Source of the DNA: Eledone cirrhosa
Taxonomy: Eukaryota
Length of the DNA stretch: 64,000 nucleotides
Reading direction: 5' to 3'
NCBI GenBank assembly: GCA_964016885.1
Contig: OZ024743.1
Coordinates: forward strand, 108,500,001-108,564,000
Part shown: in pieces, positions 12,729 to 56,883 of the stretch
Numbering within the stretch: the stretch's first letter is position 1
Layout: the number at the start of each line of letters is the position of its first letter
Made by a program: the position numbers and the translations under genes
Notes under the pieces: generated by a model
Database searches by the model: none
What the model saw: the letters and a program-made list of their open reading frames with translations, nothing else
Told to the model about the DNA's origin: nothing

Positions 12729-15123
12729 GTTTCTTCGGATATACAATTATATAGAAATATATTTATTTTCGGCTATACATTGCTTAAGTGTACTGCATCA
12801 AATGGAAAAAAAAATGTTTTGTTTTTCTTTTTATGTACGTAAGATAGGTTACGGCAACTACCGACAAATGTAATTCAAAATATCGCTTTGTATATTTATC
12901 AGTGTTTGGCATTAGACCACTAATTTTCGACAAGTACCGCTTCAAACATTGCAGCAGTTTCAAGAGATTTCATGTAGTGCGTTGCTAATTACAAATGTTC
13001 TGAGTTTAGTCTGCTAACTAATTTGGCAAACTCTGTGGAATTCTTCAAATTATATATAAACATAAATATATATATATATATATATATATAAATATATATA
13101 TATATATATATATATATATATATATATATATATATATATATATATATATATATATATATATATAACAATATATATATATATATATATATAACAATATATA
13201 TATATATATATATATATATATATATATTATATATATATATATATATATATTATATATATATATATATATATATATTATATATATATATATATATATAAAT
13301 ATATATATATATATAATTACATACATATATAAATACATGCATAGATACATATGTGTGTGTGTTTGTATATATATTCTTTGCTCCTTATGAAAATATATTT
13401 GTACAATTTTTGTAATATCGCCCCCCCCCCCCTCTATCCCCTTCTCTCTCTCGCTCTCTCTCTATTTCTTTCTCTCTCTCTCTCTCTCTCTCGCTATCGC
13501 TCGCTCGCACGCGCACACACAAACATGCATATATATATATATATATATATATATATATATATATATATATAGTGAGAGAGAGAGAGAGAGAGAGAGAGAG
13601 ATAGATAGAGATAGAGAGAGAGAGAGAGAGAGAGAGAGAGAGAGAGAGAGAGAGAGAGAGAGAGAGATATTTACAGCGAAAGATAGAGAGATAATTTCAT
13701 GCTTGAGCATATACAGAATATACATATAGAACAGTTCTCTTACAAAGAAATCCACAACCTCACACCTCCTAACAAACCCAGACACTCACAAATATCACAA
13801 CACATATGCAGAGGCCCGGCGTAACAAAATATGCATTAGTAGAGAGCCATCAATCTGTGTCACTACTTTGAATAGCAAAGTCTTCGATTGGTTGGTTAAA
13901 ATATATGCAAACTAATAATGACAGCAGTAACAGACAGAGCACTTTTGATGAAGAAAACAGCAAAGGTTTGGTGGAATGCAAAAGACAAGAACAGCGAAAA
14001 TAAACAGACACGCAAGGCACAACCGAAAACACGTTTGCACAATTAACACACCGCACGCAAAGACGTATAAACTAAACAAGACTCTTTGCAGATGGTTAGC
14101 AAAATACGACAAGTATGTTGTTTCATTAAAATCAAATATGTCTGACACTTTAAACAGAAATACCTGTGGGGGTGTCCTATTGTTTTATATATATATATAT
14201 ATATATATATATATATATATATATATATATATATATATATATATATATATATATATATATATATATATATATATGTGTGTGTGTGTGTTTTAGGGAGTTG
14301 AGAGAGGGGTGGAGAATACATTCACTTATCTAGTAATATTCTTTAAAATAAAGCGGTATATATTTGGCTTAACCTTTGACATATTTCTAATCAAATTACG
14401 GTTACACATCTACACATATATATAAATATACATGTGTGTGTGTTCTGTTGTTGATTATTCCCCCAGTTAAGGTAATTCTTTTTTATCAACCTCGAAAGAA
14501 TAAAAGGCAATGTTGGCTTCGGTGGGATTTGAACCCAGAGCACAGATATCTGGAACAAACGCAGCACAGCTTTCTATCCAACGTTTTATCAACTCTGCTA
14601 GTTCGAGGCCTGAAACATACACCAACAGAAACAAACAATGGTTTATCTACTTATTAGTTGTAATCACCATATCACCCTAAAATCAAATCTGTCCTTTAAA
14701 AATATTCTCCAATTTAAACATAATGATATGGCCGAAATTCTTTTGATTATCGGTTTAATCTTTCAAGGCCGATAAACTCGGCATCGTCTAAAACTCTCTT
14801 CAACGTTAATGCTGATCATTTCTGCTTTTCAGTCTCTCCGTCTTTTCGTATTTCTCGGATTTTGTCAACTTCACCTCTCTTGCTCTATTCGTCTAATTCC
14901 TCTCTCTCTCTCTCTCTCTCTCTCTCTCTCTCTCTCTCTCTCTATATATATATATATATATATATATATATATATATATATATATATATACATGGAAAGT
15001 TATATTTAAATTGCTTGGTTAACAACGAGTAAATATTTATAACTGATATAAAAGCACTCAACAAGTATTTGGAGTATATTTATGATATTAAATAAATGGA
15101 AACTATATTTATAAAACCATATT

Positions 15124-15189
15124 TATTTCGTTATATATATTTCAGGGATATCATATTAACAATATGTTATGCCTTCTTCAGACAAAATA
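15124..15189 (-). ncRNA. Type I hammerhead motif (P1)
   Basis: Reverse complement of 15345-15410. Confidence 0.75.
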
Positions 15190-15344
15190 CAATATAAACA
15201 GTCTTATAAATAAATAAATAGATACGACATACCTTTCAATCACCTTGCATTTGGGAGGTTGATTTGGCAAATCAACCTCCCAAATGCAAGGTGATTGAAA
15301 GGTATGCCGTATCTATTTATTTATTTATAAGACTGTTTATATTG

Positions 15345-54400: not shown

Positions 54401-56671
54401 TGCTTATTCCCTCTCTCTATTTTTTATGGCGGTGAGGAAAATATGTCAGAGATCTTTTTCAGTATAAGCGAGTAAGATAGAGATGATACATATATAGTCC
54501 AAGTAAATCTCCCCAACAATCTATATTCCGCACTGGACAAATAAAATTAACTTAATACTATACATCGTATCATAATCCGCACCAGGTAAATGAAATTAAC
54601 TTAAGTGTATACATCATAACATAAGTTACAGAATATTGTTTCACACGTATCTCATAATATTCGATGAGGGGTAGGAACAAATATACCAAAACACAAATAA
54701 TACAAGTTATAGATAGGGTTCAAGAAACCATATCAGTTTAACCTGTCCTCATGTTTATGTCGTTGGCGGAAATCGTTCAAACTATGTAGTTTAATGACCA
54801 AAAGGACCGGGAAGTTTTCGGTCTTAACGATGCGATATTGATTCGTGTTTCAAATATATTCATTTGATTTATAATCTCTCACGCATTAACCTACTACACA
54901 CTGTGTCTCTCACCCACAAGAACATATATGTGTGTATATAAACACATATATATACACATATATATAAATATGTACCTGTCATAGTTTAATTACTATGTTA
55001 TTTTGTCTTGTCTTTTAATCCAAAGACAGCGATTTGGCTTATCAGACAATGTGACCATGGATGGACCAGCAGTAGCGTCGGTAGGGGTCGAACCTGCCAG
55101 ATGTCCATCTATAGGGTTGAAGACATTGGGGATATGTGTCTTTCGTTTGTCTTTTTTATTTCCAAAGGTATTTTTTTAAGGATTCCCCATACATTTTGTT
55201 TCGTCTTACCCTTTGTTTTCGTTAACACATTAATGGTAATGTACGGAGTTTTCGTAGCAATCATGCAGCTTTTAATCGAACAGACTTCCCCCTGTAAACG
55301 TAGCGCCCCCTGCTGTTTTTATTTGCTGTATACTGTCAATGAAGTTTACAAAAGAACGCACCTGACATTATATTGTTCACATCGTCCTATACATTGTGTC
55401 TATCTACCCACCTCCATATCAATCTGACAATCTATCACAGTCTCTATTTCAATATCTCACCCACTCTGTCTCTCTTTTTCTCTATTTCTATCTGTCACGC
55501 TCCATCTCTCTCTCTCTCACTCTCTCTCGCTATCCCCCCCTCTCTCTGTCTCTCTCTCTCTCTCGCTCTCTCTATCTCTTTCTGTCTCTCTCTCTCTCTC
55601 TCTGTATATATATATATATATATATATATATATATATATATATATATATATATATATATATATATATATATATATATGATATTTATATATATATGTGTGT
55701 GTGTGGGGGGGGGTTGTATTTATGTAACAGATTCAACTGTTGCATTCTATATGAACGCTTCAATACTTAATTGAATCTGCACAGCGGGTAAAGGACCGCC
55801 ATACTGTAACATATATGTGTGTATTTAATTCATGTTACTATGTAATACATACGTACATAGATGTGTTCTTGATATAGTTGTTGTTGTTCTCATTTTAAGG
55901 TCATTATTTTAAAACTGCAATTGTTATGTTAATTATACTCTCACGTGGTGTGTTGTGCTGTAAGAGCTGAGCTCGTTTAGATTGTTGCATATTGCATGTT
56001 ATTGTGTTCTCAGAGTCACAACGACAAGGTTTTATGTTTGAACCAACTCCCTCTCTCATACACAAGCACTTCCATGAGTGTATATGTGTGTACATAAGTC
56101 ATAAACAAAATTATATTCTAGAACTAATTACCTCATGCAAAATCCACCCTGGAATCTAAATAATGAATGCGATTATATATATATATATATATATATATAT
56201 ATATATATATATATATATATATATATATATATATATATTTATACACACACACACACACACACACATACATATATATATATATATATATATATATATATAT
56301 ATATATAAATATATATAAGTTCTCTCCCAGGCCTCAGTACCACAGACTGAATACACCCACATACGAGAGATATCAATGAAAATGTCCATAATTATCATTT
56401 TAAAGATTCCTCGCTGTACAATTAAGCTACTACCGTAAGGCAAAGTATCCTTCTATACTTTCCTCATTATAATGTTCTTTTGTATAGAGTACTTAGAAAA
56501 ATAATAGTCTTAGTACTGTCATCAAGTAAGAAAAAAAATATATATATATATACCACCCACTCTCAAACGTGAAACTAATATTAACATTTATACAGCCTCT
56601 TCGCTACCACACTTTTTTGTTTTTGTTTTCTGTTTACTGTCTCAACTTTAAAATATATATATATATATATA

Positions 56672-56883
56672 TATAGGAACGAGTAGGACCCGGACCGCTG
56701 AGCTCAAGCCGTTTCGACGGCTAGTTCTGGACTAAATGCATTTAGTCCAGAATTAGCCGTCGAAACGGCTTGAGCTCAGCCGTCGGGGTCCTACTCGTTC
56801 CAATTACCCACTCTACTTCCCTAAGTATTGAGTACTTTGGTGAGTTATGGTTCACCTGGTTCCTTACCACTTTTCCTTCGTTA
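56672..56883. mobile_element. Fold-back insertion, family P6
   Basis: ~65-bp arms centred on aaatgcattt plus tail; (TA)n flanks. Confidence 0.85.

Follow-up and report, generated by a model that had tools for sequence, protein, structure and literature searches.

Penelope-like elements (PLEs) are the closest retroelement relatives of telomerase, and how they choose internal start sites and make inverted, one-tailed copies is an open question in the sections of the literature we drew on (PMC11167929, PMC8557442, PMC3846280). As described in part of one of these accounts, a PLE insertion includes an inverted copy with a tail of 30–40 bp at one end and shows a bias toward (TA)n, and the tail is ascribed to resolution by the endonuclease (PMC8557442). 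In PAc, a Poseidon-clade PLE of Anolis studied in vitro, both target strands are cut and extended, and the tail lies between two internal reverse transcriptase (RT) starts (Frangieh et al. 2024, PMC11167929, main text). Twin and dual priming have been defined for L1 (PMC2837659, in part). The inverted copy, the tail and the two internal start sites are known for PLEs from these published sections. Here we describe the window, a 64,000-nt stretch of the Eledone cirrhosa genome (contig OZ024743.1; G000:C4:108500001-108564000 in a 3.0 Gb genome) that is rich in (TA)n and contains lopsided palindromes, which we identify from their sequence as PLE insertions in (TA)n.

The named elements follow one layout: (TA)n, an inverted arm, a direct arm and (TA)n, with an extension (the tail) on one arm only. 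We call the site where the tail starts S1 and the site where it ends S2. Almost always one arm ends at each site, and in several families each site is followed by its own copy of a hairpin. This one-arm-per-site rule and the duplicated hairpin are new additions. Neither was found in the literature searched, on which older PLE structure papers may also bear, including the searched text of PMC8557442; the searched text of a 2026 retrozyme preprint held nothing on a tail, a hairpin or priming.

The families P1, P5 and P6 carry Hydra-clade motifs as defined in section 11 of PMC8557442 (Craig et al.). One ORF (open reading frame), read by motif, combines an RT with a C-terminal GIY-YIG domain, as in endonuclease-positive (EN+) PLEs, and the P1/P6 alignment has DKT, a CxCx5C linker, CxxC before E, CxH after N and no CCHH. 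Part of the linker is missing from one P1 copy (L222) but present in the P1 copy of the window, and the endonuclease remnants of P5 agree with the signature. Also as in the Hydra clade, all three families are inserted in (TA)n, with tandem or partial tandem pseudo-long terminal repeats (pLTRs), an inverted 5'-truncated copy and a tail at one end. In contrast, the tails here measure 80–92 nt rather than 30–40, and P1 and P6 have RWR where most homologs have RWK.

Outer sites and the pairing of arms

Copies were collected with tail or arm queries, giving 30 loci each for P6, P1 and P5, 19 for P2 and 30 for the P7a tail; the candidates scored were 40 of 2,781, 40 of 852, 40 of 169, 19 of 19 and 40 of 929, respectively. 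The last of these queries, meant for a P7 tail, returned mostly a further family, P8. To these we added 30 P5 loci chosen by an arm only, 400 kb of neighboring DNA and loci chosen by ORF.

A sequence-only reading of the window had proposed that independent copies end an arm at the same place in each family. All 13 arm ends that it named are real and abut (TA)n within ~3 nt. Against natural reference copies, those of P1 (four), P5 (two), P6 (three) and P2 at 9840 fall on one template site per family, S1, while P2 at 8228 and the two P7 ends were placed at S1 by a common end motif. At 57009 the P7 arm end stood but the P7 tail did not, since 57094-57159 is an arm of family P8. The two sharp outer peaks expected from the proposal were also found: 75/172 P6 arms end at +3 and 75/172 at +84, and P5 is likewise bimodal (28/70 at +3 and 22/70 at +92). 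This concentration at two sites, 42–89 nt apart, is far beyond chance and genome-wide. The AT/TA-like character noted for the sites extends to all ten S1 and S2 template sites of five families, each of which has an alternating TA run of 3–5 nt (background 33%), and TA microhomology of at least 2 nt occurs in 38/45 tail clusters compared with ~9% in controls.

The two sites are used as a pair. Among 177 head-to-head pairs, 147 combine S1 with S2, none combines S1 with S1 or S2 with S2, and 30 have an unclassified end; the latter are mostly diverged subfamilies, with that end near the complementary site. Where the pairs had not been chosen by a tail or palindrome query, 74 were S1/S2 and 0 same-site, with 20 unclassified (binomial p 1e-22 versus free choice). 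Because free choice of site on each strand would give half same-site pairs, the two ends must be coupled. Fourteen S1/S2 pairs are longer than 2.5 kb, seven in each orientation, and the rule holds in 4–8 kb ORF-bearing insertions and in several unrelated families.

A scan of 1.48 Mb made without regard to family returned 201 TA-bounded palindromes, 179 of them with a tail of at least 25 nt. Viewed in context, 21 tail-less clusters were mostly inner parts of larger arms, and ~7 were truly symmetric. With such one-sided tails and with interiors that differ, the palindromes were rejected as miniature inverted-repeat transposable elements (MITEs) or other DNA transposons. P2 has three outer sites, namely S1, S2b at about +47 and S2 at +60 (L121-L139, L256-L261; window position 10182), and S2b and S2 each pair with S1 only.

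Inner junctions and the source of the arms

For the inner junctions we kept a clean set of 85, from which reference-limited arms, junction gaps of more than 40 nt and palindrome-query loci had been dropped; the targets L001-L030 were left out because a query with the whole P6 palindrome selects the same junction. The inner junction had been described as varying freely, with a broad spread and microhomology expected. As strings, 83/85 junctions are distinct, and the junctions are independent; microhomology is present in 38 (at least 3 nt in 19), beside 36 insertions and 11 blunt joins. The broad spread was not borne out: the 5' ends of the arms cluster in family-specific hot spots, with 54/74 in a 13-nt window for P6, 22/48 in 8 nt for P5 and 18/28 in 13 nt for P1.

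These distinct junctions leave very little room for descent from a few master palindromes copied whole, whether MITE-like or by read-through into flanking TA. One P6 junction does recur in 10 loci, including that of the window, as such descent would have it, but under the self-selecting whole-palindrome query; in the sets free of that selection nearly every junction is different, and the pairing rule is kept in the long ORF-bearing insertions and across unrelated families. We thus rejected it as the main route, and identical inner junctions inherited from one ancestral palindrome, which the sequence-only reading had named as the outcome that would count against it, are not what the copies show.

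The junction types also bear on fold-back self-priming, possibly on an antisense template, in which the palindrome would form first and the endonuclease would then trim or resolve the DNA where the hairpin motif marks a TA site. For PLEs, self-priming from an antisense template has been proposed in the sections of PMC3846280 consulted, as has endonuclease-mediated resolution as the source of the tail in those of PMC8557442; S1 and S2 are TA-rich, and the hairpin would form on either strand, so the motif could be read as DNA. Yet such trimming gives no reason for one arm to end at S1 and the other at S2, microhomology of at least 3 nt is limited to the 19 junctions above while insertions and blunt joins make up 36 and 11, and in another PLE the tail lies between RT starts seen in vitro (PMC11167929, main text). 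We regard this route as unlikely.

How far each arm reaches is informative. In 33/85 junctions the arm from S1 outreaches the tail arm from S2 by 10 nt or more on the 5' side, in 9 the S2 arm goes further, and in 43 the two end within 10 nt of each other. The label "short arm" given to the internal-site arm in the sequence-only reading therefore fails, as it does within the window, where this arm measures 2.4 kb in P1a and ~200 nt versus ~70 nt in P1d. If priming took place at S2 only, with the cDNA then snapping back to be copied as far as S1, the many near-perfect hairpin copies would fit, but the S1 arm would have to lie within the S2 arm; the 33 junctions with a longer S1 arm, which exceeds the other by kilobases in P1a, refute this as a general route, and we give it scarcely any credence. 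Conversely, S2 arms stop at S1 in 12/85 junctions and within the tail in 7/85. Each arm can thus carry sequence that is missing from the other.

A subfamily-specific 7-mer of P6 is common to both arms in 46/55 readable pairs, compared with 17.4 when shuffled, a concordance that points to one source template. The common subfamily variants and the S2 arms that halt at S1 would both fit one template, and they bear on dual priming, proposed for L1 (PMC2837659, in part), in which two RNAs, one per target strand, would be copied and the protein architecture would force S1 on one and S2 on the other. Dual priming accounts for overlapping arms, such as the 43/85 that end together, without strand displacement. 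It needs an extra asymmetry to prevent same-site pairs, however, and it has to contend with variants shared by both arms and with the 19/85 junctions whose S2 arm ends at S1 or still within the tail. We consider it quite improbable.

As in L1 twin and dual priming, in the published part consulted (PMC2837659), both target strands would prime and the cDNAs would be joined in inverted order, and where the S2 arm goes no further than S1 the arms are laid out without overlap, as in L1 twin priming. In that account L1 combines priming at the poly(A) tail with priming at whatever internal site offers itself, and the route is a variant one. Unlike L1, both sites here are internal, fixed and marked by structure, the arms usually overlap and the palindrome is the normal product. 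The template continues past S2, so the RNA 3' end (poly(A)) is not the place of priming as in L1, and non-overlapping segments occur in only 19/85 junctions; a target site duplication would be hidden in (TA)n.

The P6 hot spot (L242:5225-5260; P5 and P1 have equivalents) falls within the loop of a hammerhead-like stem II and on initiator-like words, with a TATA-like word 29 nt before it. P5 has an initiator-like word as well. Hammerhead cleavage was rejected as what sets the hot spot, since the position of the hot spot relative to the core differs among P1, P5 and P6.

The duplicated hairpin and the start of copying

In P1, P5 and P6, S1 and S2 are each followed by 3–9 nt beginning with TA and then by a hairpin composed of RCTC (RCUC in RNA), a variable loop, a 2-nt bulge and GAGY-RCT. 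P7 has the hairpin after S1, and P2 and P8 are without it. Overall, a hairpin lies 3' of S1 in 15/45 tail clusters compared with 0.6% of control positions. A scan of metagenome contigs yielded 77 loci of relatives, 42 with the ORF start and 36 with enough upstream DNA. At least two hairpins precede the ORF in 22 of these 36, one in 8 and none in 6, of which 3 have a U-A variant of the outer pair; the corresponding rate for two or more upstream hairpins was 1.4% in shuffles and 0/180 in mid-ORF windows. Relative to the start codon, the two hairpins sit at about -105 and -42 (median spacing 66 nt). Among repeated untranslated region (UTR) copies with flanking DNA, 10/17 end 0–4 nt before a hairpin (4 before the first, 6 before the second); the hairpin marks insertion ends in these relatives from other organisms too.

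We aligned 51 hairpin modules, in which the CUC/GAG core is fixed by selection, and found that the free pairs covary. The outer pair is G-C in 45 and U-A in 4. The pair above the bulge, which lies outside the selection, holds in 50/51 with 14 double changes (C-G in 35, U-A in 14). The covariation score was reached by 0/500 shuffles, with relatedness among modules uncontrolled. RNAalifold predicted only a 4-bp stem, and TA peaks 6–8 nt 5' of the stem.

The sequence-only reading had both 3' ends of the cut target prime cDNA, one at the element terminus and one at a fixed internal site. Twin priming at two defined template positions agrees with the pairing rule, the TA microhomology, the sequence not shared between arms and the in vitro data on PAc, but the terminal primer has to go: neither site is terminal, the template in tandem copies runs past S2 into the ORF, and S2 is not an RNA end. 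With both sites taken as internal, most of the earlier model holds. It had recognized neither the PLE identity nor the hairpin at each site. We think it probable that both cut target strands prime on one RNA, each just 5' of one hairpin copy. The GIY-YIG domain would cut both strands of the self-complementary (TA)n, and two protein copies, each bound to one hairpin, would set the target 3' ends on the UA just 5' of it. Both cDNAs would then extend toward the RNA 5' end; that from S2 would either halt at the S1 complex or displace the S1 cDNA, and either template jumping or end joining would unite the truncated ends head to head. The inner hot spot may mark a pause, or else a short transcript may have its 5' end there.

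In its main text, the PAc account (PMC11167929) offers the closest parallel, with two internal sites of RT-start type bounding the tail, downstream of a hammerhead (a hammerhead-like pattern here), and an AT-rich target. For PAc, cutting and extension of both strands were seen and a dimer was predicted, and the mechanism proposed here would share both features. PAc starts within the ORF, in an AC-rich stem loop and without target homology; unlike these, the sites here lie in the 5' UTR, have 3–5 nt of TA microhomology and each have their own 3' hairpin. That main text draws no link between the two sites and the inverted copy.

Several observations weigh against priming at the two hairpins of one RNA. 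The evidence consists of products, and the steps of the mechanism are deduced from them. P2 and P8 obey the pairing rule without a hairpin, and the 201 palindromes include one S1/S1 and one S2/S2 case (L048:2246-2349, L290:2119-2677) and ~5 further symmetric ones of unassigned family. Most arms overlap, with 43/85 ends within 10 nt, unlike in classical L1 twin priming, so that strand displacement or a second template must be assumed, and the concordance of arms could come from gene conversion. TA, present at each site, is what the endonuclease prefers to cut as well, and a PLE started in vitro without target homology (PMC11167929, main text). G.U versus A.C counts of 5 versus 3 are uninformative on whether the hairpin acts as sense RNA or as DNA. 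Finally, of 26 P6 ORF-start copies followed in the upstream direction, only 1 has its end in the hot spot, so a single transcription start at that place finds no support.

Whether Hydra-clade PLEs in general use obligate, programmed twin priming, with a duplicated RNA hairpin in the 5' UTR positioning two RTs (one per target strand) on one RNA, is evenly balanced in our judgment. If they do, a telomerase-like start site defined by structure would serve two times over, and every insertion would normally yield a head-to-head palindrome with its tail on one side. If priming at the hairpins is right, a hairpin of ~25 nt programs the RT start, a point of interest for the evolution of RTs and for tools that insert sequence from an RNA template. 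With the pairing rule and the duplicated hairpin, PLE priming becomes directly testable by a few mutations, and a young family with many intact frames suits such tests.

Families and further features of the window

P6 appears recently active: its copies are 97–98% identical, and many have a frame of 784 codons with YRDDGL and VIY...YIG, some in tandem arrays with a 3,531-nt period. At least four tandem P6 units with open 784-codon frames and this period lie at L242-L243 (G000:C1:437.20 Mb). P1 has a 743-codon frame with a decayed RT motif, and broken RT/GIY-YIG remnants lie within P1a and P5b/c of the window itself. P2, with a frame of more than 1,200 codons, looks Neptune/Nematis-like; its frame at L259, read by eye, has a CX4CxxC linker (CX2-5CxxC in the definition) and CCHH. 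A long Asn-rich insert in the P2 ORF (L259, L260) resembles the N-rich inserts known from rotifer PLEs (PMC3846280, in part). A Pfam search gave no RT or GIY-YIG match, and Pfam and PDB sequence searches gave nothing informative. By pattern match, a hammerhead-like succession of core, stem II and GAAA, with variant cores, lies 5' of S1 in P1, P5, P6 and P2. Rfam found no hammerhead in two pLTRs or among the 150 of 233 matches listed for the window, and its matches for the window and both pLTRs were only microRNA-type or chance ones, to palindromes and microsatellites.

All of the named insertions in the window are given on the plus strand. P1a (2677..5597) is a Hydra-type insertion with its S2 end at 2677 and its S1 end at 5597; a tail-bearing inverted copy (2677-3144) precedes a sense arm with a broken RT/GIY-YIG ORF remnant (~3145-4230) and then the pLTR up to S1. 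An intron in the inverted arm was rejected, as the 476-nt gap is without GT-AG ends. P1b (14991..15455) has an inverted arm from S2 (14991) and a sense arm to S1 (~15455) that meet at the P1 hot spot, with the S1 hairpin (ACTC...GAGT-GCT) of the tail at 15053..15075 on the minus strand and a hammerhead-like core and stem II at 15353..15394 on the plus strand (a pattern match only, with no Rfam hammerhead match). P1c (34467..34878) combines an inverted S1 arm with a sense S2 arm (hairpin 34794-34816), and P1d (51170..51474) joins an inverted S1 arm of ~200 nt to a non-overlapping sense arm that covers part of the tail.

P2a (7649..8230), of a P2-related subfamily, is a palindrome at 7693-8230 with the tail to the left and an S1-type end near 8228, and P2b (9842..10182) has an inverted arm from S1 (9840) and a sense arm to the alternative outer site S2b. 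In P5a (25919..26059), a 46-nt inverted S1 arm is joined to a tail arm reaching 9 nt beyond S1 (hairpin 25977-26024), an L1-like, almost non-overlapping product. P5b/c (32238..34416) has an inverted S1 arm from 32238 and a sense arm through the tail to S2 that includes a GIY-YIG remnant (~32870-33200), the pLTR and a hammerhead-like core (34262-34285).

Three insertions belong to P6. P6c (35214..35409) has an inverted S2 arm with the tail and a sense arm to S1 (~35409), whereas P6a (38411..38573; hairpin 38502-38528) and P6b (56676..56881; hairpin 56810-56836) have an inverted S1 arm and a sense S2 arm, joined in P6b at the P6 hot spot. P7a (57012..57159) is a chimera of a P7 palindrome (57012-57093) and a P8 arm (57094-57159) that ends at the S1 of P8; the two meet across a common TACCTA, and either a template switch or later recombination between families could have joined them. 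P7b (57188..57291) has an inverted tail arm and a short sense S1 arm, with the hairpin at 57224-57246 on the minus strand.

Across 464 kb of DNA taken without selection (the window and L170-L209) we counted 22 asymmetric palindromes, a dense supply for which PLE insertion accounts. If transcribed, they would be a rich source of fold-back RNA, and fold-back RNA potential has been linked to hyper-editing in octopus and frog (PMC5625713, in part). Two TA-bounded asymmetric palindromes of other families also lie in the window, one at 8845-9626 with hammerhead-like cores and one at 11204-11630 whose S1 hairpin (11242-11269) is on the minus strand. A very abundant SINE-like (short interspersed element-like) dispersed repeat of ~200 nt occurs in both orientations and sometimes in tandem (575-812, 1187-1397, 5884-6119, 12108-12727, 31022-31670, 37567-37749, 60895-61585 and others). 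Lastly, positions 58084-59554 hold a 1.5 kb array derived from (ACC)n with a higher-order period of 462 nt.

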